In this document: piece after piece, positions 22,411-57,657 of the stretch
How positions within the stretch are numbered: position 1 is the stretch's first letter
How the letters are laid out: each line of letters opens with the position of its first letter
Origin: Candidatus Kaiserbacteria bacterium
GTDB lineage: Bacteria; Patescibacteriota; Minisyncoccia; Phycocordibacterales; Phycocordibacteraceae
Assembly: GCA_963813065.1 (NCBI GenBank)
Contig: CAWEXP010000006.1
Location: forward strand, 55,779-119,778
Length of the DNA stretch: 64,000 bases
Direction: 5' to 3'
The notes under the pieces: model-generated
Database searches by the model: none
What the model saw: only the letters and a program-made list of their open reading frames with translations
What the model was told of the DNA's origin: nothing
Made by a program: the position numbers and the translations under genes

Positions 22411-23082
22411 ATGCGCCTCACCAGCGTCGTTCTGTGTCTTCTACTAGCCGTGCCCGCATCGGCAGGTTCTGCGCCGATTAATGCCGTACATACCAGCACG
22501 CCCTGCGTCGCACTCACGTTCGACGATGGACCCGACAGAGTACAGACGCCGCGATTACTCGCCATTCTCGAGCAGAGGCATATCTCGGCGACGTTCTTCG
22601 TCATCGGGACACGCGTGACTGCGCACCCAGAAATTGTGCGACGAGCGCATGACGACGGTGATGAAGTCGGGAACCATTCGTGGAACCATCCGTTCTTCAC
22701 GCTTATCGCGAGTCGAGATGTGCGTTGGCAAATTCATCGCACCGATACGGCAATCAACTCTGCGACGGGCAGTATGCCGGTGCTTCTCCGTGCGCCGTAC
22801 GGCTCGTTGAGTCACCGTGTGCTCGGTCTCGAGAAGCGTTCGTTTATCGGATGGAACGTTGATACGCTCGACTGGCATCACCACGATACGGCGTGGATTG
22901 TGCAGTCGCTAGATGCGGTGCACGATGGTTCGATTATCATCATGCACGACACGCATGCCACAACCATCGATGCAGTGCCCGAGGTCATCGATCGTTTGAT
23001 TGCCCGTGGATTTTTCTTCGGGACGGTGTCAGAGCTCAGAGCGGGTACGTGCCCCATGCCCGATATCATTCCGGGAACATAG
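22411..23082 (+). CDS. Polysaccharide deacetylase (NodB homology domain), secreted
   Basis: Signal peptide; NodB motifs CVALTFDDGP, HSWNHP, metal-binding His. Confidence 0.75.
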   Translation: MRLTSVVLCLLLAVPASAGSAPINAVHTSTPCVALTFDDGPDRVQTPRLLAILEQRHISATFFVIGTRVTAHPEIVRRAHDDGDEVGNHSWNHPFFTLIASRDVRWQIHRTDTAINSATGSMPVLLRAPYGSLSHRVLGLEKRSFIGWNVDTLDWHHHDTAWIVQSLDAVHDGSIIIMHDTHATTIDAVPEVIDRLIARGFFFGTVSELRAGTCPMPDIIPGT

Positions 23083-23112
23083 TTCCGCCGCGGCTCCTGC
23101 CGCGGCGGTTTT

Positions 23113-24135
23113 TCATTTTTGCAATACGCTATAGACACTCGGGAGCTCGAGGCCGAGCGCCCATGCGGAGAAGCCGTAGAGCCCCTCTTTTTTAATTAAT
23201 GCCATTTTATCTGCCAAGCTTCGCGCGTTTTCGTACCATATCGAAAATTCTTGGGCATGGCTCCAATAGACGAGGTACGGTTCGTGTTCGGTCGCACTGT
23301 AGTAGTAGCTCACTTTGTGTTTCTTGATGACATTCTCGATGCCTTGATTACCGCCAATGCCAACGCGTTTGCCCGCCGCATTGTTCCATTGCCAGTAGTA
23401 GAGCCCGATGCCGAGTGATATTTTCTGCGCAGGGATATGGGCGAGGCTGTAGGCGAGGACTTTCTGATACCAATCATATTCTGCAACGGGACCCTTCGAC
23501 TCGGGGTCGTCATAGGCCATGACGCTGACAAAATCGGTGCTCGAAGCGAGCGCGCCGTAGTCGTACACACCCGCAAGGTCTTGCCAGAGCGTGCCCTGAT
23601 ACTCAATCGGCATGTCCGAGATCTTGGCGACGACCGCCACACTGAGAACGAGACCATTCGCTCGCAGTACCGTGTCCAGATTCTGGACGAATGTGGAAAA
23701 TTTGTCTCGATAGGACGCATCCATCTGCTCGAAGTCGATCTGCCAGCCCCAGTAGCCTTGTTTCTTTGCTTCCTGCACGAGCGAGCTGATGGCCGCCGCT
23801 TGCGTGGTCGATGAATCGAGCAGGTTCTGGTACGCGGTCTGCCCAAAGTCGTCGTTGGTCACCAGGGGCATGACCTTGATGTGGTGTTTCGCCGCGAAGG
23901 TGAGGAGGGCAGGATCAACACTCCCAACCAGCGCACCGGTCCCCTGGAGTGCATACGATTGTGGCGCGAAAATATCAATGGAACTCGGATGCGCGAAGAA
24001 AGACTTCCGCGCCAGCGTTCCTTCGCGATAATAAAAGAGACGCACCGGAGCCGCCGCATGTGCTGAGTATGCTCCCATACCGAGCGAGATGCCGATACCG
24101 AGAGAAAGGAGTAGTGTGCGAGCGGCAGGAGACAT
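23113..24135 (-). CDS. Glycoside hydrolase family 18 protein, secreted
   Basis: Signal peptide. GH18 catalytic motif GWQIDFE (DxxDxDxE-like). Resembles YaaH/YdhD-type peptidoglycan/chitin hydrolases. Confidence 0.65.
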   Translation of the reverse strand: MSPAARTLLLSLGIGISLGMGAYSAHAAAPVRLFYYREGTLARKSFFAHPSSIDIFAPQSYALQGTGALVGSVDPALLTFAAKHHIKVMPLVTNDDFGQTAYQNLLDSSTTQAAAISSLVQEAKKQGYWGWQIDFEQMDASYRDKFSTFVQNLDTVLRANGLVLSVAVVAKISDMPIEYQGTLWQDLAGVYDYGALASSTDFVSVMAYDDPESKGPVAEYDWYQKVLAYSLAHIPAQKISLGIGLYYWQWNNAAGKRVGIGGNQGIENVIKKHKVSYYYSATEHEPYLVYWSHAQEFSIWYENARSLADKMALIKKEGLYGFSAWALGLELPSVYSVLQK

Positions 24136-24137
24136 GG

Positions 24138-24884
24138 TCAGCGTTTAATTTTTTCTAAGAGCATTTCGTAATCTCTCGTGGTGACATGCCAGTCGCCCGG
24201 CTCGAGCGGATTGTCGAGATCGGTCAGGACGAGGAAGATGGAGAACGCGAGGCCCGCGATGCTGGCGGTGAAGAGGAAGGCGAGTCCGGGATCGCGAATC
24301 CCAATGAACATCGAGAGTCCGATGAGCAGGAATGCCGAAAACTGGAGTGTGTTCTTCAAGAGGTGCGGCATGCGTTGGCGACTGTACTCGAGCCGTGAGG
24401 AGCGGTGGTCGAGAATATCAGAGAGGAGGGCGAAGGAGGTCGGCATGAGTTGTGGTGCCTCGTCGAAGATGTCGTAAATGCTCGTATTCAAGTCGGCGAT
24501 GACCTCCTCGAGCTTGGTACTGCGCTCGCCTTTCTTGCTGTGGGTCCAGCCCTCGTGAATGATGAGTTCGAGATAGCGTGTGATCTGCGCATGAATCCGG
24601 TCGCGAATCTTCTCGGGGAAGTGGCTCGACCAGAGATAGAGCTTGTCGAGACCGTCGACTTCGCCGCGCACCGCTTCGGTCAAAGAGTCCCACTTGCCCC
24701 ATTCCTTCTGAATCGCGAATGCCGCGAGGATGGAGAAGATGGTGCCCACCGTTGCGTAGAGCCAGGGCACGCCGTCGATGTTCGCCAGCAAGACGCGCAG
24801 GTCATACTCCGAGCTTGAGCGGACGAGATAGAACACGCCGGAGAAGACGACGAGGAAGGGGATGAGTTTCTTGATGAGTCCCAT
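24138..24884 (-). CDS. Integral membrane hypothetical protein
   Basis: 2 N-terminal + 2 C-terminal TM helices around a soluble core. Confidence 0.4.
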   Translation of the reverse strand: MGLIKKLIPFLVVFSGVFYLVRSSSEYDLRVLLANIDGVPWLYATVGTIFSILAAFAIQKEWGKWDSLTEAVRGEVDGLDKLYLWSSHFPEKIRDRIHAQITRYLELIIHEGWTHSKKGERSTKLEEVIADLNTSIYDIFDEAPQLMPTSFALLSDILDHRSSRLEYSRQRMPHLLKNTLQFSAFLLIGLSMFIGIRDPGLAFLFTASIAGLAFSIFLVLTDLDNPLEPGDWHVTTRDYEMLLEKIKR

Positions 24885-24940
24885 ACTTTGATTATACGCT
24901 GAACGTAACCATATATTCTCGAGCCTCGTTATCACTGGGT

Positions 24941-25753
24941 ATGAAAACTATTGCCATCATCGGTCGGGGATATGTCGGGCGCGCACTCGAAGAATTTTTC
25001 AAAGATAAGTTTAACGTCGTCATTTACGACCCACCGCAGGGTTTTAAAGATAAAAAAGCGGTGAACAAGGCTGACCTCGCCGTCGTCTCGGTCCCGACCG
25101 TGATGCGGAAAGAGGGGACGGCTGATCTCTCGGTCGTCGAAGAGACCTTCTCCTGGCTCACCACGCCGCTCGTCGTGCTCAAGAGCACGGTGCTCCCGGG
25201 AACGACCGCTCTCTTGGTGAAGAAATATAAGATGGCGGATCGACTCGTCTTCTCGCCCGAGTTCATCGGCGAGGGCGGATATCCGGTCCCGCACTGGGAG
25301 GGTGTCCCGCATGCGACCGACATGAAGCTCCACAAAGCGTTCATCTTCGGCGGCACGCGGAGCGCGGTGGAGCGTGTCATCCCATTCTTCGCGCGCGTGC
25401 GTGGGCCATTTGGCGAGTATCACATCACCGACAGCACCACTGCGGAGTTGATGAAATATATGGAGAATGCATGGATCGCCGCGAAGGTCACCTTCTGCAA
25501 TGAGTTCTACAATATTGCCGAGGCGTATGGCGTGTCCTACGACGAACTCCGCGAACTCTGGCTCACCGACGGCCGCGTCGGTCGTTCACACACGCTCGTG
25601 TATCCGGATAAGCGCGGCTTTGATGGCAAGTGCATTCCCAAAGATACAACCGCCATTTACCTCGCCACGAAGAAACAGGGCTACAACGCGACCTTCCTTG
25701 ACGCCATCTTGCGGAAGAACGCCACATTGCGCAAAGAAAAAATCCCGTATTAA
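24941..25753 (+). CDS. UDP-glucose/GDP-mannose dehydrogenase family protein (short form)
   Basis: Rossmann IAIIGRGYVG; catalytic-Cys motif GFDGKCIPKD. Only 270 aa, shorter than canonical UGDH. Confidence 0.55.
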   Translation: MKTIAIIGRGYVGRALEEFFKDKFNVVIYDPPQGFKDKKAVNKADLAVVSVPTVMRKEGTADLSVVEETFSWLTTPLVVLKSTVLPGTTALLVKKYKMADRLVFSPEFIGEGGYPVPHWEGVPHATDMKLHKAFIFGGTRSAVERVIPFFARVRGPFGEYHITDSTTAELMKYMENAWIAAKVTFCNEFYNIAEAYGVSYDELRELWLTDGRVGRSHTLVYPDKRGFDGKCIPKDTTAIYLATKKQGYNATFLDAILRKNATLRKEKIPY

Positions 25754-25820
25754 CGGCACACCAGCCCGTGCTATCATAGGCTCGTACGTGCGGTGCGTTT
25801 AAAAAATAATATATCGAGTT

Positions 25821-26048
25821 ATGAAGACGATGACCTGCGCACAGATGGGCGGCCCCTGCGACACTGCGATCACCGCCGAGACCGAAGACGAAATGATGGC
25901 GAAGGGCATGGCACACCTCGAGAGCGCGCATCCCGAGATGGCCGCCAAAGTGAAGGCGACGCCAAAGGATGATCCGATGATGGTCGCGTGGGGCGAAAAG
26001 TTCCATGCGGACTGGGCCGCGGCTCCGGAAGTGCCGGCTGCGGTTTAG
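25821..26048 (+). CDS. DUF1059-like small metal-binding protein
   Basis: [40 protein letters not shown] matches the DUF1059 pattern. Confidence 0.6.
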
Positions 26049-26130
26049 ACATCTCACGAGAGGAGGAAAACGCCCGTTCGGGCGTTTTCGCGTTTACAGA
26101 AACGGTTGGCACCGTGATACCATAAGCCCC

Positions 26131-26469
26131 ATGAATGAATCCATTTTGGTGGTCACCACCAACGACGTGCCGGGCTACGAGGTGGTGAAGGTCTACGGCG
26201 AGGTTTTCGGCTTGCTGGTGCGGAGTCGCAATCTCGTGAGCAATATCGGCGCGGGCTTGAAGGCGATTATTGGTGGCGAGATAGGCGGCTATACCAAGCT
26301 CCTGAGCGACAGTCGCATCGAGGCAATCGAGCGGATGAAGCAGGCGGCGGCCGAGAAGGGCGCGAACGCAGTCCTGATGATGCGCTTCGACACGGGCGAC
26401 ATCGGCGCGTCGATGAACGAAGTTGCCGCGTACGGCACCGCGGTCACCATCCGCCCCCTCGCACACTAA
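26131..26469 (+). CDS. YbjQ/UPF0145 family protein
   Basis: 112 aa with [20 protein letters not shown]...AVLMMRFD... pattern. Confidence 0.65.
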
Positions 26470-26591
26470 TGGCTGACCACGACGATTTCAAAACGCATAT
26501 CAAAGAGCCGCGTTGGCAACAGGTGGTGAGCATCCTCATTGTCCTCGTCGTTTTCGCCGTGTGGCTCTGGCTCGCTGTGCATCGGGGATAA
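26469..26591 (+). CDS. Small single-TM protein (40 aa)
   Basis: [40 protein letters not shown]. Start overlaps the previous stop. Confidence 0.3.
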   Translation: MADHDDFKTHIKEPRWQQVVSILIVLVVFAVWLWLAVHRG

Positions 26592-26907
26592 TTTTTCAAA
26601 GAAGCAAGAGCTTCTGGAGTAGGAAAAAGAAAAAAGCCGCTCACGTTCGCCAGCCGGCGGACTACAACCAACTCCTTACATTTATTCCTAGTTTTCCAAA
26701 CTCTGCTCCCGGAACATCACCTCCATATACCGTCTCTTTTCAATAGGGAATACATGGAAAATATGGCTCACCAATTGAGGGTTATTCGATTGATGGAAAG
26801 AACGGATGGTGAAGTTAAATGCGTTTAAATACCTTGAGTTCGGCGACTCCTTCATTCCGTGAGACTAATATAACTTGCTGGCGAATGGGTGTTAGAATAG
26901 GCCAATC

Positions 26908-29418
26908 ATGGGCCAAATATCGAAAAAACGGGACAATAAAGACATTTCTCTCGAGCAGTACCAACATACAACTGTGAAGCGGGCCAATAATCCGCAAGTC
27001 GGACTCGTTAGCGGTACCTTGGATTCAAAGCCGAAAAAGAAAACATACCAACATGACCCGTATATTGATCCAACATTGTCTTGGGCGGGTAAGGCCGAAG
27101 GTGCTTCGTTTGGTGTTGATACTGTCTCGCTTCATATCCACGAACGGATAGATCCAAAAAGAATAATAAAACAAGTCCTAAAAAAGACTGAAGAAACAGT
27201 TAAATTGCAGCCATCACTTTTTGAACAACCGAGCGAAAATTTGAATACAGAAAAAGAGTTTGATTTTTATGGCCACACCAAAAACTGGTCAAATCGTCTT
27301 ATCGCCGGAGACAGCTTGCTCGTCATGAACTCTCTTCTGGAAAAAGAGAAAATGGCTGGGAAAGTACAGATGATTTATATAGATCCCCCGTATGGGATTA
27401 AATACAACTCAAACTTTCAACCTTTCACAAATAAGAGAGACGTGAAAGACAGGGACGACGACAGCATTCCTGCTGAACCAGAGATGATTAAAGCGTTTCG
27501 AGACACGTGGGAGCTTGGCATCCACAGCTACCTCACATATTTGCGAGATCGTTTACAGCTTTCGCACGACTTGCTGCATGAAAGCGGTAGTATTTTCTTG
27601 CAGATCTCCGACGAGAACGTACACCACATTAGAGAGTTGCTAGATGAGATTTTCGGGATGGAAAACTTTGTGGCGCAGATCAACTTCCGTAGCATGTCCC
27701 CGCTCGGTCAGTCTGGGATGGCGAGGGTCTACGATTACATACTCTGGTACGCCCGCGACAAGAAGAAAATGAAATACCGATCTATTTTTATAAACAGAGA
27801 AATCGAGGAGGAGCCCGAATTTTGCTATCTCGATACTGGCGATGGTTTGTATAAGAAGTTGAACCGCGAGGAAATAGCGGCTTTGCCTGCCGATCAAAGA
27901 AAAAAGATCTTCAAGAGGTCAACCCTCACGTCTTCTGGCTACACGCCCTCTTGCACCTATCCTTTCGAGTTGGGTGGGAAGGAATATCGTCCGCTTAGTG
28001 GGAAAAGTTGGCGAACTCATCCGGAGGGAATGAAGAAACTGATTGCCAAGCACCGCATCTTTGTACTCGGCCAGAATCCGTACTTCAAGCAGTACCACTC
28101 TGATTTTCCGTTCGTGCAACTCGAAAACGGATGGAAGGATACGGCCGCAGGATTTAGTGATCAGAAAATATATGTTGTGCAGACAAACAATAAAGTGATC
28201 GAGCGATGTGTTCTGATGGTCACGGATCCAGGAGATTTGGTCCTGGACCCGACTTGTGGCTCTGGCACGACAGCGTATGTAGCAGAACAGTGGGGTCGTC
28301 GTTGGATCATGTGCGATACTTCCCGTGTGGCAATCCAACTTGCAAAACAACGGTTGATGACCAGTCAATTTGATTATTACGAAATGGCACAACAAGAAGA
28401 AGGTGTCTCGTCTGGATTTAAATATAAAACCGTTCCACACACCACACTTGGAAGTGTTGCGAACAACGAACTAACCAAAGAAGAGACTCTCTATAATCAG
28501 CCATTTGTCATAAGAGATAAAGTTCGGGTGACTGGACCATTCACAGTAGAGGCCGTTCCGGGCATCCGCACCAAGCCAATTGAAGGAAATCTCCCGGATG
28601 TATCTGACAAAACAAATCCAACGAATCCGATTTCCGAGAAATTGAACGACTACCTCGATAGCATTCGTGCTTCAGGCATTCGCTCATACCACAATGAAGG
28701 AATTACATTCAACAGCGTAGAAGTTTCCGAAGGATTTAATGAAATTCATGCATTTGGAAATATTGATAGCAATGGGGAATATAAAAAGTGTGCAATAGTC
28801 TTTGGCCCTGATTATGCTCCCATGGAACAGACCCAAATTGAGCGAACAATGGACGAAATTAGAAATATGGCTGAGAAACCAAACATGGTCATCTTTTGTT
28901 CGTATGCTTTTGACCCCGAAGCATCAAAGGATGTTGATAACATAAAAATATCCGGTCTCCAGATTTTGAAAGCTCAAATGAATACGGACTTGCTCACTAA
29001 AGATTTAAAGAAAAAAGCAAACGCAGACAGACCATTTTGGCTCATTGGGGAACCAGATATTGAAATCAATAAAACCAAAGAAGGGAAATTCCAAGTGGAG
29101 GTGAAGGGATTCGATTACTATGATCCTCGTACCCAGGAGCTCAAGGGTGGCAGTACAGACAAAATTGCTGTCTGGATGATTGATACAGATTACGACAATA
29201 GATCCCTATTCCCCTCACAGATATTTTTCCCAATGCAAGATCAGAAAAGAGATTGGACTAAACTTGCAAAAGCGTTAAATGGGAGTGTAGACGAAGAGTT
29301 ATTGGAGCAATATACTGGCACAACATCAATACCTTTCGCATCAGGCGATAAACGAACCATAGCGGTAAAAATAGTCGATGACCGCGGTGTTGAGATGTTA
29401 GTGGTCAAGAAAATATAG
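26908..29418 (+). CDS. mod: Type III restriction-modification Mod subunit (N6-adenine/N4-cytosine beta-class DNA methyltransferase) with long C-terminal extension
   Basis: Motif IV IYIDPPY precedes motif I DPTCGSGTT (beta-class order). 836 aa, with ~350 aa after the MTase core. 4-nt gap to res. Confidence 0.75.
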   Translation: MGQISKKRDNKDISLEQYQHTTVKRANNPQVGLVSGTLDSKPKKKTYQHDPYIDPTLSWAGKAEGASFGVDTVSLHIHERIDPKRIIKQVLKKTEETVKLQPSLFEQPSENLNTEKEFDFYGHTKNWSNRLIAGDSLLVMNSLLEKEKMAGKVQMIYIDPPYGIKYNSNFQPFTNKRDVKDRDDDSIPAEPEMIKAFRDTWELGIHSYLTYLRDRLQLSHDLLHESGSIFLQISDENVHHIRELLDEIFGMENFVAQINFRSMSPLGQSGMARVYDYILWYARDKKKMKYRSIFINREIEEEPEFCYLDTGDGLYKKLNREEIAALPADQRKKIFKRSTLTSSGYTPSCTYPFELGGKEYRPLSGKSWRTHPEGMKKLIAKHRIFVLGQNPYFKQYHSDFPFVQLENGWKDTAAGFSDQKIYVVQTNNKVIERCVLMVTDPGDLVLDPTCGSGTTAYVAEQWGRRWIMCDTSRVAIQLAKQRLMTSQFDYYEMAQQEEGVSSGFKYKTVPHTTLGSVANNELTKEETLYNQPFVIRDKVRVTGPFTVEAVPGIRTKPIEGNLPDVSDKTNPTNPISEKLNDYLDSIRASGIRSYHNEGITFNSVEVSEGFNEIHAFGNIDSNGEYKKCAIVFGPDYAPMEQTQIERTMDEIRNMAEKPNMVIFCSYAFDPEASKDVDNIKISGLQILKAQMNTDLLTKDLKKKANADRPFWLIGEPDIEINKTKEGKFQVEVKGFDYYDPRTQELKGGSTDKIAVWMIDTDYDNRSLFPSQIFFPMQDQKRDWTKLAKALNGSVDEELLEQYTGTTSIPFASGDKRTIAVKIVDDRGVEMLVVKKI

Positions 29419-29422
29419 GTGT

Positions 29423-32152
29423 ATGGAATCTGTAGACAAAAAACAAGGATTCGTAATCAACTCACCATACTTCGAACCGAAGTATCATTTTGAATACGAC
29501 GAAAATAGCGAGAGTTATCACAGAGAGGATGGCCGCAGAAAGGCCGGGTACTATGCAACTGTAGGTAAACAAGAAGTGGGGAAAGGGGCGACGCAATTCC
29601 TAGAGTTAGAGCTGGCTAGCATGATACGGCCACGAGTTAAAGAGTGGAAAGAAAAAGGATATCCAAATGTGACTTCAACTACAAAAAAGCTCCTGGAGCA
29701 CTGGAACAGATTTGATCAAGAGGGATTTGAGCAGGATGGTCAGAGGTACTTCTGGTGTCAGATAGAGGCGATTGAAACTATCATCTGGCTTGTTGAGGCT
29801 CCGGATGCCGTAAAAGTAGGAATAAATCTAAAAGACAGGAGCGATAGTGATTGGATGCGGGCCTGTACAAAGCTGGCGACGGGTACGGGAAAAACGGTTG
29901 TGATGGCGATGATTATTGCATGGCAGGTGCTCAATAAAGTTGCTAACCCAAAAGATACGAGATTTACGAAAAATATACTCGTGATGGCACCTGGCATTAC
30001 CGTGCGACATCGTCTCGAAGTGCTAATTCCAAGTAACGAGTCAAATTACTATGACGTCTTCAATATCGTACCCGCTTCACTTAAAGAATATCTATATCAA
30101 TCAAAAATAGCGATACTCAACTGGCAGTCAGTTGCTCCTAAGAAGAAGGAGTCCTTACCGAAAGTAATGCGAGATATGATGGGAGAGGAGAGCGATGGGG
30201 CATTTACGAGAAGAGTTCTATCTGAACTTCCGGGAGACGCACCGATATTGGTAATAAACGACGAGGCGCATCACTGCCATAGGCATACTGCTGAGATAGG
30301 AAAATCAAAAGAGGATAAAGAACAAGAAAAGAAAGAAAATGAAGAAGCGACAGTTTGGGTACAAGGTTTAGATAAAATACATAAAGCACGGGGAATTATT
30401 ACCGCTTATGACATGTCCGCAACTCCTTTTGTTCCGAAAGGTCGTAGCTCCAATACGGGATTCGAACTGTTTAACTGGATTATATCTGATTTTGGTCTGC
30501 ATGATGCCATCGAATCCGGTTTGGTAAAAACACCAACAATTGCAGTAAGGGACAGTTCGTATTCGTCAGAAAAAGTGGCCGGAGACAAGTCAAAGTTGTT
30601 CCACATCTATTATGAAGAAGGTATTCGGGAAGATCTCAATAAAAAATGTGAACCGAATGTAGATTTACCTGACCTTGTGCGAAGTGCGTTCAAGATCCTC
30701 TCAACAGATTGGTTGGCAACTAAAAACGAATGGAGTAAAGGAGTACCACCATCGATGATAGTGATTTGTAATAATACCTTTACATCTCAGCGAATTGAAT
30801 ACTCCATTTTAAATAGTCATTTAGGCGTATCAGAGATGGCAGATAAGAGTAAGGTATTGAGAGTCGATAGCACGGCTGAAGACATAGAAGATGAATCTCT
30901 TCGAGAAAAGTTCAATACCGTTGGTAAACAGGGGAAGCCAGGTGCAGATGTCGAATGTGTGATTGGTGTGAATATGCTCTCAGAAGGATGGGATGCAAAT
31001 AACGTTAAACAGATACTCGGCTTGCGCGCCTTTACATCACAATTGCTTTGTGAGCAGGTTGTAGGCAGAGGGCTCCGTAGAATGAGCTACGATATTGATG
31101 AAAGTACAGGGTTATTGAAACCAGAGTATGTAACAGTTTTCGGTATTCCCTTCAGCTTCTTACCAATAGAGGGTAAGGAGGGACCAGATCCTGGCCCAGA
31201 AAAGCCAAAAACTTTCGTACAGGTGCTACCACAGAAAAGACAATATCAAATTCTATTTCCCAACATCTTGAGGGTGCAAAAAGAGACAGAGCACTTTGTC
31301 GATATTGATTGGAAGAAAACAGAAAAATTGGCCTTGTCTCCAACAGAGAACCCTGTGTGGGTTCAGGTTGCTCCCACCATTGATCGCCCCGACTTGTCTC
31401 AGTCTCAAAAGATGAGTTCGATTCAAGAATATCTCGGTAAAGACTATCGCTTAAAACAAAGCGTTTTTGCGATTACTTCGAGTATCAAAAACGGTTTGGA
31501 CGACACTTGGAAGAATATAGATGATGGTAATAAATTCCAACAAATATTTAAAATTGTTTCTGATTTTATCGAGAAGAATGTAACTATAGATGCTGACAAA
31601 AGTAATCACGACGTGTATAAAAATATTCTTATTGGTTTAAACACCACCAAAATAACAGCAATGGTTAGACAGGCGATAAACTTGAGTCAAGACACGAAGT
31701 CTTATCCAATACCCGATCCAATCAACAAATTCAAAACAACATCAGTAATGACGCCGTGGTACACAACCCGGGATACCTACTCTTCGCCTGAAATGAAATG
31801 CCACATTAGTCATCTCGTACAAGATAGTAGATGGGAAAATATAGGGAAGATTCTCGATAATGAAATCGATGATGTTACGGCTTGGGTCAAGAATGACCAT
31901 TTGGCTTTCACCATTCCCTACATACACAAAGGGTTGATGCGATCTTTTTTCCCCGATTTCGTTATTCAATATAAAGGGAACCGACATCTACTTCTGGAAA
32001 TAAAAGGAAAGGAGAGAGAACAAGACCAAACTAAATGGGATTCGGCGAAGCTGTGGTGTGAAGCCTTAAATTCCGACAAAGATTCTTGGGGAGAGTGGCA
32101 GTTTAGAGTTGTGAAAAATAAGCCAAATATTTCCGACCTAAAATGGAAATAA
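29423..32152 (+). CDS. res: Type III restriction enzyme Res subunit (SF2 helicase + PD-(D/E)xK nuclease)
   Basis: Walker A LATGTGKT; DEAH box INDEAHHC; helicase motif VI QVVGRGLRR; C-terminal PDF...LEIKGKE nuclease motif. Confidence 0.75.
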   Translation: MESVDKKQGFVINSPYFEPKYHFEYDENSESYHREDGRRKAGYYATVGKQEVGKGATQFLELELASMIRPRVKEWKEKGYPNVTSTTKKLLEHWNRFDQEGFEQDGQRYFWCQIEAIETIIWLVEAPDAVKVGINLKDRSDSDWMRACTKLATGTGKTVVMAMIIAWQVLNKVANPKDTRFTKNILVMAPGITVRHRLEVLIPSNESNYYDVFNIVPASLKEYLYQSKIAILNWQSVAPKKKESLPKVMRDMMGEESDGAFTRRVLSELPGDAPILVINDEAHHCHRHTAEIGKSKEDKEQEKKENEEATVWVQGLDKIHKARGIITAYDMSATPFVPKGRSSNTGFELFNWIISDFGLHDAIESGLVKTPTIAVRDSSYSSEKVAGDKSKLFHIYYEEGIREDLNKKCEPNVDLPDLVRSAFKILSTDWLATKNEWSKGVPPSMIVICNNTFTSQRIEYSILNSHLGVSEMADKSKVLRVDSTAEDIEDESLREKFNTVGKQGKPGADVECVIGVNMLSEGWDANNVKQILGLRAFTSQLLCEQVVGRGLRRMSYDIDESTGLLKPEYVTVFGIPFSFLPIEGKEGPDPGPEKPKTFVQVLPQKRQYQILFPNILRVQKETEHFVDIDWKKTEKLALSPTENPVWVQVAPTIDRPDLSQSQKMSSIQEYLGKDYRLKQSVFAITSSIKNGLDDTWKNIDDGNKFQQIFKIVSDFIEKNVTIDADKSNHDVYKNILIGLNTTKITAMVRQAINLSQDTKSYPIPDPINKFKTTSVMTPWYTTRDTYSSPEMKCHISHLVQDSRWENIGKILDNEIDDVTAWVKNDHLAFTIPYIHKGLMRSFFPDFVIQYKGNRHLLLEIKGKEREQDQTKWDSAKLWCEALNSDKDSWGEWQFRVVKNKPNISDLKWK

Positions 32153-32156
32153 TCTT

Positions 32157-32288
32157 ATGGACGAGGAACTCTTCGAACTTGCAAAAGATAACGACCTAAC
32201 TCTAGACGAGGCGCAGGAGGTTCAAGATCTTGCCGACGAAACGGGACTAGACCTGGAAGAGGCGTTAGAGATTTGGCAGGCGCAATAA
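32157..32288 (+). CDS. Small acidic protein (43 aa) immediately after res
   Basis: MDEELFELAKDNDLTLDEAQEVQDLADETGLDLEEALEIWQAQ starts 5 nt after the res stop. ~35% Asp/Glu. Confidence 0.35.
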   Translation: MDEELFELAKDNDLTLDEAQEVQDLADETGLDLEEALEIWQAQ

Positions 32289-32290
32289 CC

Positions 32291-32743
32291 CTAATCGCCC
32301 CGTTCTAGTTGCGCAACGAGTTCAACAATCCCAATCCCTCCTTGGTGCTGGATCGTCTCCTTGGGCTTGCCGATTGTATGTTCGAGCAGTAGCCGTGCGG
32401 CGTTGGTGTCGGGTGCCAATTCAGATACAGATTGTCTCCCCTTAAAGTCGGTACGAGTGATGCGAAGATTCCCGATAGCGGCTTGGATTTGAGCATCGAG
32501 AATGGGGTCAAGTTTCTCAACTATCTTCTGTACCATGCGCTCTCGAATCATTTGAGTAATGAGTGTCTTGCTTGCTACTGGCCGCCCCCCTTTTATTTTT
32601 TCCGGAAACATCGAGTTAATTATATAATTCGTTTTCAACTCCTCTGTAGATATAGTCGGTACTTCGCGTCTACGCCGTTTGTTCGCCTCGCAGCGAGGAG
32701 TCATTACTTGGTTGGGTATAGGATGCCTTTGCCCGGTAAACAA
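32291..32743 (-). CDS. Hypothetical protein (island operon gene 4)
   Basis: 150-aa ORF; basic N-terminus; no domain recognised. Confidence 0.4.
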   Translation of the reverse strand: MFTGQRHPIPNQVMTPRCEANKRRRREVPTISTEELKTNYIINSMFPEKIKGGRPVASKTLITQMIRERMVQKIVEKLDPILDAQIQAAIGNLRITRTDFKGRQSVSELAPDTNAARLLLEHTIGKPKETIQHQGGIGIVELVAQLERGD

Positions 32744-33393
32744 CTGTCAGACGCGGAGATAAGTATGGGATTGTCGTGCTTATCGAAGGTGTAGGTATTC
32801 GTCGTCCCGCACTCCGATGACATATGCCAATAAACATCGACTTCTCCGGTTTTGGGGAAAGATAAGAAACCAAATACCGAGCCATCGGTGTCCCGCTCCA
32901 TTGAGATAGTGGTCGTTGAGCCAGCGTCAGAATAGAAGTCAAATCCAATTACGTGACGAACTAATCCTTTCTTTTCTTCAAGTAGGGCAAAGTATGGGCA
33001 TCCACCACTGCCGCAAAAACCGACAACGAGAGGATCAACGAAGTAGAGAACCTTTCCGTCGGAAAGAGTAGTCGAGGCTACATCAGACTGATTTCCGCAT
33101 AAAAAGTCAGAAAGGGGGTAAGGCTTCACAAAGTCGGATAGTTCGTTGTCGATAGGATCGTTGCCGCTGCCACTGTTCTCATAGTACGGAACACAGTTCG
33201 GATTAATTGCTCCAAGCTCTTCAATATAATTCGGGTCGAAAGTATTAGGCGAGAAATCATCTTTAGATAAAGTATCCAAGACGGCTTTCCCAGCAGCTTG
33301 CTGGTACACGATAGGATAGGCAATAAAGAGTCCAGCGAAGACAATTGCGACGAGGCCGCATAGAAGTAAGAGTCTGGTGCCCAGATTTTTCAT
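32704..33393 (-). CDS. Membrane-anchored extracytoplasmic Cys-containing hypothetical protein (island operon gene 3)
   Basis: N-terminal MKNLGTRLLLLCGLVAIVFAGLFIAYPIV TM helix. Start overlaps the upstream gene. Confidence 0.45.
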   Translation of the reverse strand: MKNLGTRLLLLCGLVAIVFAGLFIAYPIVYQQAAGKAVLDTLSKDDFSPNTFDPNYIEELGAINPNCVPYYENSGSGNDPIDNELSDFVKPYPLSDFLCGNQSDVASTTLSDGKVLYFVDPLVVGFCGSGGCPYFALLEEKKGLVRHVIGFDFYSDAGSTTTISMERDTDGSVFGFLSFPKTGEVDVYWHMSSECGTTNTYTFDKHDNPILISASDSCLPGKGILYPTK

Positions 33394-33632
33394 ACCATCC
33401 ATTCGTACCACTCTTTTTCTCTTGCCACCGGTCGATTGTTTTCCCCTCTTTCTCGCAACCCTCTAGTCTCTGATTCAAGGCTAAATATTTTTTGTTGTAG
33501 AGCATTTATTACGCTCGCTGCGTTATGGCTTTTGTCCTCGAAGTACCAAATAACAAGAAAGGCGAGAAAACCAGCGCCGCCGCTATTACTCGCTCCTCCT
33601 ATTATGAATCCCCATAAAATTGCCCATACCAT
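33390..33632 (-). CDS. Small membrane protein with C-terminal coiled coil (island operon gene 2)
   Basis: 80 aa; MVWAILWGFIIGG... TM helix; overlapping start/stop with neighbours. Confidence 0.4.
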   Translation of the reverse strand: MVWAILWGFIIGGASNSGGAGFLAFLVIWYFEDKSHNAASVINALQQKIFSLESETRGLRERGENNRPVAREKEWYEWMV

Positions 33633-33634
33633 AG

Positions 33635-34234
33635 TTATATTTGTTTTAAATACTTTTCCGAATTTCTCAAACCGGAGTTATTCACACTACCTATAAAATC
33701 TTGCATATCTTCGTACCAAGATTCTCCCCACAATGTTCTATCGCAATCACGCAAAGAGAGTGCGGGGTAGGTTCCTCGAACAAGTGATACATACTTCCAA
33801 TACAGTCTCTTTTTCTCTTTCCGGTTAACAACGGTACTAAGATTTCTGATTTTCTCGCTACCGTCTCCAATTCTTTTATTTACTTGTTCTCGTACCCGAT
33901 AGTCGTACACAGTGAAGGTCTCGGGGTAAAGTGTCGTGAGGACTGCTGACGCCATTGCGATATCGAACCCATCTTTATCCAGAAGGATGTCTAGTTTTGT
34001 ATCCAGATCTTTTTCATTAGCAATTGTTTCGGTTAAATTCTTTATCGCCTCATCAGACAAACTTGCTCGGATTCTTTTTGCTGGGCGCTTTGATTTCCAA
34101 AAAATGATTGCAAAAAACTCTTCTGCGGTAAGGAAATGATTTTTAACAAAAGCTGGCCGCACCTCTTTTTCAAGGTAATTATCCAACCAGTAATATTTGA
34201 GATAGTTTTTTGTAGACATGCAAAAACCCACCAC
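33635..34234 (-). CDS. Hypothetical protein (island operon gene 1)
   Basis: 199-aa AT-rich ORF; no recognisable domain, not integrase-like. Confidence 0.4.
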   Translation of the reverse strand: MVGFCMSTKNYLKYYWLDNYLEKEVRPAFVKNHFLTAEEFFAIIFWKSKRPAKRIRASLSDEAIKNLTETIANEKDLDTKLDILLDKDGFDIAMASAVLTTLYPETFTVYDYRVREQVNKRIGDGSEKIRNLSTVVNRKEKKRLYWKYVSLVRGTYPALSLRDCDRTLWGESWYEDMQDFIGSVNNSGLRNSEKYLKQI

Positions 34235-34494
34235 GTGGGTAGAGGCTTGCGCCTCTCATACGAGTTTCCCCGTATGGCCGGTAAAGACGACCCCACATGA
34301 TGGGTTTCCGCGTCTTTACCGGACTTCTCCAGCCATGCCCAGCCCGGAGGCTGAGTTTAGGCCATATCGCACCCTTGTATCGTACTCGGTCTGGAGCTTA
34401 TGTGAAGGCGGAACGTGCTTTCTACAAAAAACCAGAAACAGAAAAAACCATAGATTCTATGGCTTCTTCTGAGGTTATATTAACTGGCCTTCGG

Positions 34495-34566
34495 CTCCGC
34501 GGGTAGGACTCGAACCTACAACCAACTCCTTAACAGGGAGCTGCTCTACCATTGAGCTACCGCGGA
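34495..34566 (-). tRNA. tRNA-Asn (anticodon GTT)
   Basis: Minus-strand cloverleaf: acceptor TCCGCGG/CCGCGGA, anticodon loop CTGTTAA, T-arm GTAGGTTCGAGTCCTAC. Confidence 0.8.
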
Positions 34567-34705
34567 ATGTTGTCGTACCCCTGACTTTTTTGAACATACC
34601 GGAGGTACCGCGGAATGTCTATGATGTCTGCACCGCTATCGGTGCCACGGCATTCTAGCTGAAACTGCACAGAATTGCCACCCGCTCGTTTGGTATACTT
34701 GTGTA

Positions 34706-43643: not shown

Positions 43644-43907
43644 ATGGCCACAGAAGAATCTACCAAAGTAGTTAGAGCCGCATACGAGTATCTCCTGCAA
43701 GTTCTTGTAGCGGGCGGCACATCTCTTGACAAAGTTTCTGACTTTCGTGTGGAAGAATTGACGCAAAATAAAAGTACGAAGGCCTATCAAGTCACTTTGA
43801 GTTACGAAGTGACCGGTCAATTCCAATTTGACAAAAAAAGAGAGCTTAAAGATTTTGATGTTACCCCAGCTGGCAAGGTGCTAGCTATGCGCATACGTAA
43901 GCAGTAA
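43644..43907 (+). CDS. Hypothetical small protein (possible partner of the PIN-like protein)
   Basis: 87-aa ORF in an AT-rich patch; stop 3 nt before the next start. Confidence 0.35.
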   Translation: MATEESTKVVRAAYEYLLQVLVAGGTSLDKVSDFRVEELTQNKSTKAYQVTLSYEVTGQFQFDKKRELKDFDVTPAGKVLAMRIRKQ

Positions 43908-43909
43908 AT

Positions 43910-44452
43910 GTGGCAAGTGGCTTAAACAGTTTGGAAGCGATAGAAACATATCGTCTCGCCAGAAGACCCGATGGGATAATTGTAGACACGGACGTTTTGC
44001 ATCTTCTGCTGGTCGGTCTTTTCGATCCAAAGGAAATAGAATCATGTAGCCTGCTGCAGGACGGCGGGAAAAACTTCAAGGAAGAAGATTTCAAACTAGC
44101 GTTAGATATAGTATCTCGATTTAAGAAGGTTGTTATAACCCCTCACATTTTGGCTGAGTTATCGAACCAATCTAAGCAAGCATTTCATGGAGCAAAATTT
44201 GAATTATATTTTCAATCACTGATTGGCTATCTCAAAAATACTGAGGAAGATCACGTGACCTTAGATTCTTTGCTGCAAATTGATTTGAAAATAATCGAGA
44301 GATATGGGTTTACCGATTCGGCCATATTTGAACTAGCAAGAACAACAGGAATGCCCATATTTACTGATGATACGAAGCTACATATTTTCCTTGAAAATCA
44401 TGTGCCGATAATTAAATTCGGACATCTACGATATTTGGGTCTTTTAAAATAA
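43910..44452 (+). CDS. PIN-domain-like protein (VapC-like candidate)
   Basis: Acidic residues arranged as in PIN (IVDTDVL..., ...HILAELS..., ...FTDSAIFE..., ...IFTDD). AT-rich. Confidence 0.4.
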   Translation: MASGLNSLEAIETYRLARRPDGIIVDTDVLHLLLVGLFDPKEIESCSLLQDGGKNFKEEDFKLALDIVSRFKKVVITPHILAELSNQSKQAFHGAKFELYFQSLIGYLKNTEEDHVTLDSLLQIDLKIIERYGFTDSAIFELARTTGMPIFTDDTKLHIFLENHVPIIKFGHLRYLGLLK

Positions 44453-44454
44453 AA

Positions 44455-44497
44455 GGGCTTTGAATTTTTAAGAAAAGCCCCTCGCGAGAGGGGGCTT
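44455..44497. terminator. Bidirectional intrinsic terminator between convergent genes
   Basis: Overlapping hairpins GGGCTTT...AAAGCCC and AAGCCCCTCgcgaGAGGGGGCTT with flanking A/T runs. Confidence 0.6.
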
Positions 44498-44501
44498 GGT
44501 G

Positions 44502-44900
44502 TTAGAGGGCATTCACTTTCTTGAGTTCGGCAGCGATGCGGTGGAATTTCTTGGAAAATTCTCGAGCGACGAGTTTGTCGCCGTGCCCGATGTCGCTCTT
44601 GCGACTGGCAAGTTTGTCGAATGCCTCTGCCTGCTTTTCGAGTGTGGCGATGAAATCCGATAGCTTCACGACCGGTGGTTTGGGCGGGGCGATTTGGTCC
44701 TTCGGGATTTTTTCCCAATCCTGATAAGAATCGGATATACCGAAACCCTTTTCCTTCCTTGCGCACGTGCCGCAGAAAGGGTGGTCGCCGGAGAATTGTG
44801 TGTGGCGAATCCATCGTGCAGGCTTGTCGCAGTGATATCCTCCGCCGCAACAATACAAAGGTTCAGTTGGCTTCGCACGCATTACTTTCTTCTTCGACAT
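44502..44900 (-). CDS. Zn-ribbon-containing hypothetical protein
   Basis: CCGGGYHC...CGTC cysteine pairs; start placed at MSKKKVMRAK. Confidence 0.4.
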   Translation of the reverse strand: MSKKKVMRAKPTEPLYCCGGGYHCDKPARWIRHTQFSGDHPFCGTCARKEKGFGISDSYQDWEKIPKDQIAPPKPPVVKLSDFIATLEKQAEAFDKLASRKSDIGHGDKLVAREFSKKFHRIAAELKKVNAL

Positions 44901-44968
44901 GAGTGGCTCCTTTCGCCAGTTCCGCGGTGAATCTAGCATATCGAGCGATTTTGTAAAAGCATAGTAGA

Positions 44969-46072
44969 ATGGCGACAATGGAAGTCGTCATTTTTATTCT
45001 CGTTATCGTCGCGCTGATTGTGGTCCACGAGTTTGGACATTTCGTCGTGGCGAAGATTTGCGGCATGCGCGTCGACGAGTTCGGTCTCGGGTATCCACCG
45101 CGCGCACTCACCATTGCGAAAGTGGGCGAGACCGAGTACACGCTCAATTGGTTGCCCTTCGGCGGTTTCGTGAAGATTTATGGAGAAGAAATAGATGCGA
45201 AAGAAATGGATGCGCGCGCGTTCAATAAGAAAAACAGATTCTTGCAAGCGCTGGTGCTCGTCGCGGGCATCGCGATGAATCTTATTTTTGCGTACGTTCT
45301 TATTACTAGTGCGCTTATCACCGGCACGCCGCGCGCCCTCACCGCGCCCGAGATCGCGCACGCGACCGGTCTCCAGCTCGCCATCGCGGATGTCGTGCCG
45401 AGCTCGCCTGCCGCGCGTGCGGGTATCTTGCCCGGCGATTCCATCCTCTCGGCCAAGGATACGGTTGGGGAGTGGCGCGCAAGTGACCCCGAGAGCTTCA
45501 CCGCGTTTATTGCGGCAAGTGGTGGGAGCGCCGTCAGTCTCACGCTCCTTCATAATGGCGCCGACGAAACAGTCACCGCAGAGCCGCAAGCGGGTGTCGT
45601 CCCGGGTGATCCCGCGCGCTACGCGCTCGGCGTCGAGGTCGCGACGATTGGCGTCGTGCCTGTCTCCTTTGTCAGCGCGCTCGGGCAGGGCGCCGAGCTG
45701 ACGTGGGAAATTACCAAGATGACCGCGCTCGGGCTCCTACACTTCTTCGCGAGCCTCTTCACCTTCTCGGCCGATCTCTCGCAGGTCGCGGGGCCCATCG
45801 GCATCGCGGGCGCGGTTGGCGGCGCGGCGGCGAGCGGGCTCGGCAATCTCCTCTCGCTTATCGCGGTCATTTCTATCAATCTCGCGCTCATCAATTTGAT
45901 TCCCATTCCTGCGCTCGACGGCGGCCGCCTCTTCTTTGTGATTATCGAATCAATTATCCGTCGGCCTATCCCCGCGCGTGCGGCGCAGGCGGTGAACACC
46001 GTCGGCTTCGCGCTCCTGGTCCTCCTCATGGTCGTGGTTTCGCTTCACGATATTTATAAAATCGTCGGTTGA
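44969..46072 (+). CDS. rseP: RIP metalloprotease RseP (site-2 protease)
   Basis: HEFGHFVVA zinc motif, PDZ domain, LDGG motif near the C-terminus. Confidence 0.8.
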   Translation: MATMEVVIFILVIVALIVVHEFGHFVVAKICGMRVDEFGLGYPPRALTIAKVGETEYTLNWLPFGGFVKIYGEEIDAKEMDARAFNKKNRFLQALVLVAGIAMNLIFAYVLITSALITGTPRALTAPEIAHATGLQLAIADVVPSSPAARAGILPGDSILSAKDTVGEWRASDPESFTAFIAASGGSAVSLTLLHNGADETVTAEPQAGVVPGDPARYALGVEVATIGVVPVSFVSALGQGAELTWEITKMTALGLLHFFASLFTFSADLSQVAGPIGIAGAVGGAAASGLGNLLSLIAVISINLALINLIPIPALDGGRLFFVIIESIIRRPIPARAAQAVNTVGFALLVLLMVVVSLHDIYKIVG

Positions 46073-56973: not shown

Positions 56974-56994
56974 TATCGAGGTTTAACCTCGATA
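56974..56994. repeat. REP palindrome TATCGAGGTTTAACCTCGATA (RAYT 3' flank)
   Basis: 21-bp perfect palindrome overlapping the RAYT stop. Confidence 0.7.
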
Positions 56995-57657
56995 TTCTTG
57001 ATAGTATTCATGCGCGTCAGTAATCATTTCCTCAAGAGAGGGGAGTTCCTCGTAGAGTTCAAAAACCGTCATGCCAAGGAGATGTTTTTCTAGTCGTTGC
57101 AACTTCAGAAAGTCTGGAAGACTCGAGTATCGGTACCGGATGAGTTCGTTTTTAATCTGCGATACGTTTCCGTCGCCATTTTTCCATGCAGAATCAAAGA
57201 GTTTTGCAGGATTCAGATGGACATAGGCAACCAACCGCTTAAGATACAGATCATCGTCGACAATCTTCGATTTAAACGTTCCCGCAAACAATGCGCCCGT
57301 TCGTTCATATTTAGTATTAAAGTACATCGTGTAGCCCGTACAAAGTTTTTGCATGAAGCGCGCAATGCCTCCCTTGTCTATCTCTTTAAGTACCAGATGA
57401 AAGTGGTTTGGCATCAAACAATATGCACCGATTTCTACAATGGCGTTTCCACGGTCAAAACTCGAATCAAGAATTACATCCGCCAATCTTTTGTTTTTAA
57501 GATTAGAGGTCTGTACTGGTTTTTCGCCACCGCTCGTAAAGAGGGCGAGCAGAAAACGTTCATAATCTGCAGAATCTTGATACACCAGCCGTTTATCTAC
57601 CCCACGGTTGTAGCAGTGATACCACTCATCAATTCCAAATGCCGGTCGCGTAGGCAT
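56983..57657 (-). CDS. REP-associated tyrosine transposase (IS200/IS605-like HUH Y1 transposase)
   Basis: HUH motif HFHLVL, conserved Tyr region (AYVHLNPAK), ~220 aa; flanked on both sides by the same REP palindrome. Confidence 0.7.
   Translation of the reverse strand: MPTRPAFGIDEWYHCYNRGVDKRLVYQDSADYERFLLALFTSGGEKPVQTSNLKNKRLADVILDSSFDRGNAIVEIGAYCLMPNHFHLVLKEIDKGGIARFMQKLCTGYTMYFNTKYERTGALFAGTFKSKIVDDDLYLKRLVAYVHLNPAKLFDSAWKNGDGNVSQIKNELIRYRYSSLPDFLKLQRLEKHLLGMTVFELYEELPSLEEMITDAHEYYQEYRG

Follow-up and report, generated by a model that had tools for sequence, protein, structure and literature searches.

Among characterised integrases, tyrosine enzymes use tRNA sites, with cores of 25-76 bp that rebuild the 3' end of the tRNA, and serine enzymes have common cores of 5-8 bp and integrate into, and disrupt, open reading frames (ORFs) (PMC8092301). 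The subject of this study is a segment at approximately 26662-34532 in a 64-kb window of a chromosome from a Paceibacteria bacterium of the Candidate Phyla Radiation (CPR), where a Type III restriction-modification (R-M) system lies near a tRNA-Asn gene. The window is the whole stretch of DNA that was analysed (contig CAWEXP010000006.1); numbering throughout refers to it, and tRNA nucleotides (nt) are positions in the tRNA-Asn gene. We consider it quite probable that the segment is a decayed integrative element with the history proposed below, in which a large serine recombinase (LSR) would have acted on the tRNA gene. To our knowledge, no serine integrase that targets tRNA genes has been described.

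In several respects the locus resembles known tRNA-associated islands and cryptic prophages: it adjoins a tRNA gene, shows a shift in composition, has a tRNA-derived direct repeat at its far end and carries defence genes. As in those islands, element sequence appears to complete the 3' half of the tRNA, and decay appears to have removed the integrase. It differs from them in that the recombinase here is a large serine recombinase and in that the distal repeat is 17 bp and ends inside the T-stem. A second comparison is with the large serine integrases of phages and integrative and conjugative elements (phiC31, Bxb1, A118, SPbeta and CcrAB type). The relatives of our element likewise encode proteins of 498-530 amino acids (aa) with Resolvase and Recombinase (and Zn-ribbon) domains, with the LSR gene at the element edge beside the attachment (att) site. 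Here, however, the gene directly adjoins the tRNA, with which it overlaps at the tRNA 3' end; the repeats derived from tRNA are long (47 nt in locus L251; 39 nt with mismatches in L006); and in loci L253 and L261 the protein is divided between two ORFs that overlap.

An AT-rich island bounded by a tRNA-derived repeat

The 17-mer CTACAACCAACTCCTTA is present as two exact copies in direct orientation, at 26662-26678 and 34516-34532, which are the positions given in the original prediction, made from the letters of the window. Sequence searches allowing up to two mismatches revealed no further match in the window, and the chance expectation was 0 (100 shuffles), so the repeat cannot be put down to recurrence by chance. 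ARAGORN and Rfam (tRNA model, 73.3 bits) place a tRNA-Asn(GTT) gene at 34493-34566 on the minus strand; the right copy therefore corresponds to tRNA nt 35-51, again as predicted, and reaches from the final base of the anticodon into the T-stem, of which it covers the 5' half. The tRNA gene with this right copy would form the proximal junction (attL). The left copy at 26662-26678, whose sole other copy is the one in the tRNA, sits at a drop in GC content.

Sliding-window analysis showed that GC content in the flanks is 0.55-0.63, versus 0.32-0.50 across most of 26600-34200 (for the greater part 0.37-0.49), with averages of about 0.57 and 0.43, respectively. It falls within 26500-26700 and climbs back over 34200-34700. 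Within the island, the region of ORF150 and that encoding LOOT RNA, both described below, are locally richer in GC (0.53-0.55). The island thus described, with its GC break at the left copy and its mod, res and five further ORFs, agrees with what had been claimed, and it extends from the 3' end of tRNA-Asn (34493) toward lower coordinates.

A serine recombinase remnant beside tRNA-Asn

Peptide and DNA alignment identified the 3' remnant of an LSR gene, 34 codons and a stop codon, at 34402-34506 on the plus strand. The encoded peptide, VKAERAFYKKPETEKTIDSMASSEVILTGLRLRG, aligns with the C-terminus of the recombinase of L261, a related element described below (LKAEEAFYKIPKSKNRENSIDSGGVILANFRLRG), with a BLOSUM score of 78, compared to 21±3.7 for shuffled sequences, of which 0 of 2000 reached this value (z ~15). 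At the DNA level, about 90 nt downstream of the window tRNA-Asn align to L261 and L253 with a local score of 29, against 8.1±1.4 in shuffles (0 of 2000 as high). The last codons of the remnant are the complement of the tRNA-Asn 3' end. Homology to the recombinase ends at ~34402, a deletion junction about 40 nt short of LOOT RNA. Since the recombinase arm fills this interval in L253 and L261, we conclude that the element in the window lost that arm by internal deletion. A terminator-like hairpin of 15 pairs followed by a T-run (34439-34471, minus strand; terminator scan) lies just downstream of tRNA-Asn, inside the remnant.

No intact recombinase is encoded between the repeats, the Pfam scan detected no tyrosine recombinase inside the island, and no LSR homologue is present elsewhere in the 64-kb window. 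The earlier claim that no tyrosine or serine recombinase lies inside the island therefore stands for intact genes and misses the 34-codon remnant. Two fates had been offered for the island, decay or mobilisation in trans; the LSR remnant, together with homologous elements at the same site that keep their recombinase arm, argues for decay and against the other.

Related elements at tRNA genes in other Paceibacteria

The segment is flanked on the left by a YbjQ gene and on the right by glutaredoxin (grx), DUF167, fmt and def genes. Best matches to fmt among GTDB representative genomes are metagenome-assembled genomes (MAGs) of Patescibacteria/Paceibacteria, at no more than 62% identity. The order def, fmt, (DUF167, grx), tRNA-Asn is kept in many of the fmt-anchored genomes, and several contigs stop at the tRNA. 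Synteny with relatives holds for the genes on the right of the tRNA and for none on the left of the island; tRNA-Asn is therefore a synteny breakpoint.

Anchoring a metagenome scan on a UDPG-DH-like gene of the left flank gave at most 76% identity, with neighbours that are not syntenic. The closest contig, L247 (87% nucleotide identity, with fmt 91% identical at the aa level), diverges from the window at 34689 and ends 474 bp later. Exact-protein look-ups returned the same strain only, as contigs L001, L249 and L250 of Logan ERR11630400; these contigs break within the tRNA, as a k-mer repeat effect would produce, and the breaks are uninformative on the 17-mer.

One counterpart, L261, occupies the same chromosomal place and reads priA, def, fmt, S30AE, DUF167, grx, PBP, tRNA-Asn, LSR, six ORFs, LOOT and a homologue of ORF199, the island gene that follows LOOT RNA; beyond the latter are a 72-aa ORF, a Terminase_2 gene and more ORFs. 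L253 starts with the 3' part of tRNA-Asn, and the opposite strand of its last bases encodes the recombinase C-terminus and stop codon; the order continues from this tRNA-Asn 3' end/LSR to LOOT, an ORF199 homologue and an ORF80 homologue. L251 has the same design with a tRNA-Gln fragment in place of tRNA-Asn. In all three loci a divergent arm beyond LOOT ends in an LSR gene with Resolvase, Recombinase and Zn_ribbon domains, and no Pfam tyrosine integrase (Phage_integrase) was called in any of them. In addition, tblastn with these recombinases placed LSR genes directly downstream of tRNA-Asn, in convergent orientation to it, at the fmt-anchored loci L003, L010, L042, L050 and L075, and LSR remnants in L006 and L041; an LSR gene is also present in L064, where ARAGORN found no tRNA-Asn. 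In this lineage, elements that bear an LSR thus occur repeatedly at the tRNA-Asn behind def-fmt. These homologous elements at the same tRNA, with the shift in composition and the repeat, uphold the original view of a horizontally acquired island at tRNA-Asn.

Two loci retain more extensive tRNA-derived repeats. At 11791-11926 of L006, exactly 25 nt separate a full tRNA-Asn from a displaced copy of nt 35-73 (39 nt with mismatches) that carries compensatory T-stem changes. At 4166-4309 of L251, a full tRNA-Gln is followed, after exactly 25 nt, by an identical fragment of nt 27-73 (47 nt) that contains the LSR stop codon.

In L253 (39-1614) and L261 (5058-6621), two elements of ~70% identity, the recombinase breaks at one shared point into a pair of ORFs that overlap, one of ~307 aa with the catalytic and recombinase domains and one of ~223 aa, starting MSQ.GIKKGIAYYHCS, with the Zn-ribbon and a coiled coil. 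The shared break may reflect a conserved split or a programmed frameshift and not random decay. We also observed that contigs L002, L009, L015, L026, L062 and L078 stop no more than a few bases from the tRNA-Asn that follows fmt. Such MAG contig ends are consistent with strain-variable DNA breaking the assemblies.

LOOT RNA and its partner gene ORF199

A full-length match to LOOT RNA (Rfam RF03000; 84 bits versus a gathering score of 46.4; model positions 1-121 of 121) lies at 34241-34363 on the minus strand, which is the tRNA strand, between tRNA-Asn and ORF199. Rfam lists LOOT as a metagenomic small RNA (sRNA), and the copy in the window agrees with that family along its whole length. What differs from the listing is the context, a fixed position before one protein family within tRNA-associated mobile elements of Paceibacteria. 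Further copies were found in L251 (8398-8516), L253 (4600-4719) and L261 (9863-9978), and LOOT precedes homologues of ORF199 at equal spacing in L251/L252 (69% identity), L253/L254 (49%) and L261 (44%). In the four independent mobile-element loci, the 3' end of LOOT is ~21 nt before the start codon of the ORF199-family gene. A terminator scan found a small hairpin and U-run with a Shine-Dalgarno-like GGUGG between LOOT and the ORF199 start codon (34226-34240, minus strand), and this hairpin and its spacing are kept in L251, L253 and L261. The constant spacing and the conserved hairpin and U-run suggest that LOOT may be a cis-acting leader and not a free-standing sRNA. Three further loci with an ORF199 homologue (L255, L257 and L259) have no LOOT.

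With 14 specified bases, the pattern used to scan viral contigs for LOOT was not selective enough, and the hairpin check eliminated every locus returned. A search of open-access texts found nothing on the function or context of LOOT. If confirmed, the present locus and its relatives would link this RNA to a host lineage, to a setting in the genome and to a candidate partner gene, and would make its function testable.

ORF199 (33635-34219, minus strand; 194 aa from the ATG at 34219) is a conserved gene of the element with an HhH-GPD DNA-glycosylase-like fold. Sequence searches of Pfam, NCBIfam and PDB gave no match, and of 32 homologues found, none has a Pfam domain. The protein is similar in fold to solved HhH-GPD glycosylases, and its invariant residues G84, P99 and D106, judged by eye, fit the hairpin-P-D pattern. 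Scans of viral contigs with ORF199, ORF150, an ORF199 alignment and the L261 recombinase returned nothing close, with 0-3 weak matches.

These observations lead us to a broader proposal, which we offer tentatively and with somewhat more doubt than belief. Paceibacteria may carry a family of small integrative elements, phage- or satellite-like in character, whose LSR targets the anticodon loop of tRNA-Asn (and other tRNAs or tmRNA). The element DNA that encodes the recombinase C-terminus would rebuild the tRNA 3' half, and LOOT would act as a cis-acting leader of an HhH-GPD-like gene. The segment in the window would be a decayed copy.

The Type III restriction-modification cassette

Most of the island is occupied by two genes on the plus strand. 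The first, mod (26908-29418), is intact and encodes a Type III DNA methyltransferase of 836 aa (Pfam N6_N4_Mtase, 2.9e-34; PADLOC MTase_III, 5.5e-147). It is followed after 4 nt by res (29423-32152), intact in the window, whose 909-aa product is a Type III restriction subunit by Pfam, PADLOC (REase_III, 2.5e-18) and NCBIfam (BPTD_3080 restriction endonuclease family, 906 bits against a cutoff of 800), with a helicase domain (Pfam ResIII, 1.1e-10) and a C-terminal TnsA-like nuclease domain (Tn7_TnsA-like_N, 4.8e-05). The domain matches confirm mod-res as a predicted Type III R-M system. It shares with EcoP15I-like systems and the BPTD_3080 Res family an operon in which mod precedes res, an N6/N4 methyltransferase as Mod and a Res protein with a helicase of superfamily 2 and a C-terminal nuclease domain. 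Mod differs from them in that it is long (836 aa) and has a central region unrelated to that of its closest DNA homologue. No phase-variable repeats were found in mod or res.

Homologues of Mod with 70-77% identity occur in many Paceibacteria. In L265, the closest mod-res relative examined, nucleotide identity of 78% covers 26917-27680 and 28165-32124 only. The central region of mod between these blocks (27680-28165) is unrelated to its counterpart in L265, and therefore the two systems probably differ in specificity. The host of L265 has a GC content of ~35%; neither a tRNA nor LOOT is near its mod-res genes, and its flanks are unrelated to those in the window. Because homology is confined to the two coding sequences, mod-res is a self-contained cassette found among CPR genomes. 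It may be cargo of the element or a later insertion, and the island looks composite, with a LOOT/ORF199 element remnant (32291-34506) joined to the mod-res cassette.

Contig L001 of Logan ERR11630400 matches window positions 23078-32520 exactly, save for one extra T in res. The additional base, at ~8866 of L001 (window ~31943), shortens Res to 850 aa and reflects either a subpopulation with inactivated res or an assembly error.

The left junction and the proposed history of the island

Read in the orientation of the tRNA, the sequence that follows the left 17-mer is UCCGCCGGCUGGCGAACGUGAGCGGCUUUUUUC. Sequence inspection and RNA folding identify it as a terminator-like hairpin and not a T-arm or acceptor stem. 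The hairpin (26636-26658) and its U-run (26630-26635), on the minus strand, stand directly outside the left repeat (26630-26658 in all); the fold has an energy of -27.4 kcal/mol with a weak z of -1.84, and the simple terminator scan missed it because the stem is bulged. The hairpin is probably host DNA and may once have been the terminator behind tRNA-Asn. Identity between the two junctions is limited to nt 35-51 and does not run to the tRNA 3' end. We also looked for a tRNA 3' remnant to the left of the 17-mer; candidate matches to TCC..GCCGG needed two gaps and were rejected as insignificant.

A textbook distal junction is thus absent at the left end, since the flank is this hairpin instead of a displaced 3' part of the tRNA. 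The original prediction had read the repeats as the classic anticodon-loop att signature of a tRNA island, and that reading needs correcting on two counts: the recombinase is a large serine enzyme and not the tyrosine one that the signature implies, and the distal identity stops at nt 51 against a hairpin. The left 17-mer would instead be a truncated distal att site, an attR that later lost nt 52 onward. It begins at nt 35, as does the displaced tRNA-Asn fragment in L006, and this shared start points to a crossover at the anticodon loop.

We therefore propose the following history for a decayed integrative element at this site. An element using an LSR would have integrated in the tRNA-Asn behind def-fmt, at the anticodon loop. 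It would have brought with it a new 3' half for the tRNA, continuous with the 3' end of its own recombinase gene, which places the LSR stop codon on the strand complementary to the T-stem and acceptor stem. A later internal deletion would have stripped nearly the whole recombinase arm, some 4-5 kb by comparison with L253 and L261, leaving the 34 terminal codons and, ~40 nt on, the LOOT-ORF199-ORF80-ORF235-ORF150 module. The distal part of the element may then have been lost or replaced, with a Paceibacteria mod-res cassette occupying its place, and the distal junction reduced to tRNA nt 35-51, the left 17-mer, against the host terminator. The island would therefore not be self-mobile and would now be a fixed defence island. 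Within this history, the role of the LSR as integrase for the tRNA-Asn site is suggested by their association, and the crossover would fall at about nt 35. The left 17-mer is presumably the attR of the same element that left the LSR remnant, and the order in which deletion and R-M acquisition took place is one that we infer.

Several observations weigh against this history. Neither an empty site nor an intact close relative was found in the GTDB fmt-anchored and metagenome scans, and no relative in them has both flanks. The left flank is not syntenic, so the polarity and extent of the insertion are read from composition and right-hand homology only. The left repeat lacks tRNA nt 52-74, which calls for an extra, unobserved deletion. 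A single integration does not explain the arrangement of tRNA, 25 nt and fragment in L006 and L251. At the loci with an intact LSR, L003, L010 and L050, no tRNA-fragment repeat is present in the 7-9 kb available, and therefore the distal att structure of a complete element has never been seen; the analysis yielded neither an attP nor a complete element with its two junctions. Finally, the short cores and ORF targets of known serine integrases are unlike the targeting of a tRNA by an LSR (PMC8092301).

The alternative that survives best is sequential accretion, in which the LOOT/ORF199 remnant and mod-res represent two or more independent insertions at a tRNA-Asn hotspot and the left 17-mer is what an older or different element left behind. 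We regard it as unlikely, but it has a basis in the data: the homology of mod-res to L265 is restricted to coding sequence, L265 lacks any tRNA or LOOT context, and the mod-res block and the 32200-32800 region are unlike in GC content. Fragments on either side of tRNA-Asn or tRNA-Gln in several loci also point to repeated events. In the window, a repeat family scan identified such a fragment on the 5' side, a second short direct repeat at 34602-34618 that matches the tRNA 5' end and four upstream bases (34554-34570) at 16 of 17 nt and sits 48 nt upstream of tRNA-Asn; comparable 5' fragments lie upstream of tRNA-Asn in L057, L040 and L009 and of tRNA-Gln in L251. The duplications suggest that events occurred on the 5' side of the tRNA too. 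Accretion does not readily account for the single downstream fragment in the window, placed exactly at the outer compositional boundary, or for the fact that no tRNA fragment or repeat between res and ORF150 marks a second junction.

Far less probable is a classic tyrosine-integrase island with an anticodon-loop att site, mobilised in trans by an integrase encoded elsewhere. Identity does begin in the anticodon loop, as at many tRNA sites of tyrosine integrases (PMC8092301), but the remnant next to the tRNA comes from a serine recombinase, the homologous elements found at this site have LSRs and, by Pfam, no Phage_integrase gene, and the truncated distal repeat could not rebuild the tRNA on excision; with respect to the trans component, the window holds no LSR homologue outside the island. 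Least probable of all is a 17-mer that is coincidental or derived from local decay of the tRNA gene, in a low-GC R-M locus with no site-specific integration: the missing empty site and the terminator, rather than a tRNA remnant, in the left flank would suit it, but shuffles yield 0 matches, the repeat is direct and exactly at the GC break, homologous mobile elements occupy the same tRNA in other genomes, and an LSR remnant is present.

Taken together, the evidence shows a genuine island of foreign origin that has decayed. It is ordinary as islands go, and its element family is a moderately novel variant. What it records would be routine genome flux, in which a mobile element died and left behind a predicted Type III R-M system in the tiny genome of a CPR bacterium. 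If our reading of the LSR is true, serine integrases that use and rebuild tRNA genes widen the known choice of targets and add candidate tools for genome engineering. Likewise, if true, the tRNA-Asn hotspot at def-fmt probably breaks many MAG assemblies and is a practical marker for mobile elements and prophages of CPR bacteria.

Other ORFs of the island and minor features of the window

The five small ORFs of the island (43, 150, 235, 80 and 199 codons) have no Pfam, PADLOC or NCBIfam match. ORF80 (33390-33632, minus strand) encodes a small membrane and coiled-coil protein and is conserved beside ORF199 homologues, with 34% identity to the ORF next after the homologue in L253/L254. ORF235 (32704-33411, minus strand), also part of the element remnant, is predicted from its N-terminal hydrophobic segment to be membrane-anchored or secreted, and L253 has a protein with a signal or transmembrane segment at the equivalent position. 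The last gene of the remnant, ORF150 (32291-32743, minus strand), matches only a PHROG terminase small subunit (E 0.0079). This weak match suggests that its product is possibly DNA-binding or small-terminase-like; it shows no similarity to the Terminase_2 protein of L261. ORF43 (32157-32288, plus strand), which begins 5 nt after res, encodes a small acidic protein; the gene is in the ORF list and is also called in L001, and it has no counterpart after res in L265.

A 20-nt inverted repeat (26676-26695 and 29812-29831; 18 of 20 positions complementary) has one arm starting inside the left 17-mer and the other within res. By a rough estimate, it is probably due to chance.

Two patches of low GC content were observed outside the island. 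The first, at 43644-44978 (GC ~0.44), contains three ORFs of 87, 180 and 158 aa with no NCBIfam match and may represent a small insertion of accessory DNA flanked by conserved genes. The second, at 56983-57657 on the minus strand, is AT-rich and encodes a 224-aa protein with a weak match, below the cutoff, to a REP-associated tyrosine transposase (NCBIfam, 1.3e-07).

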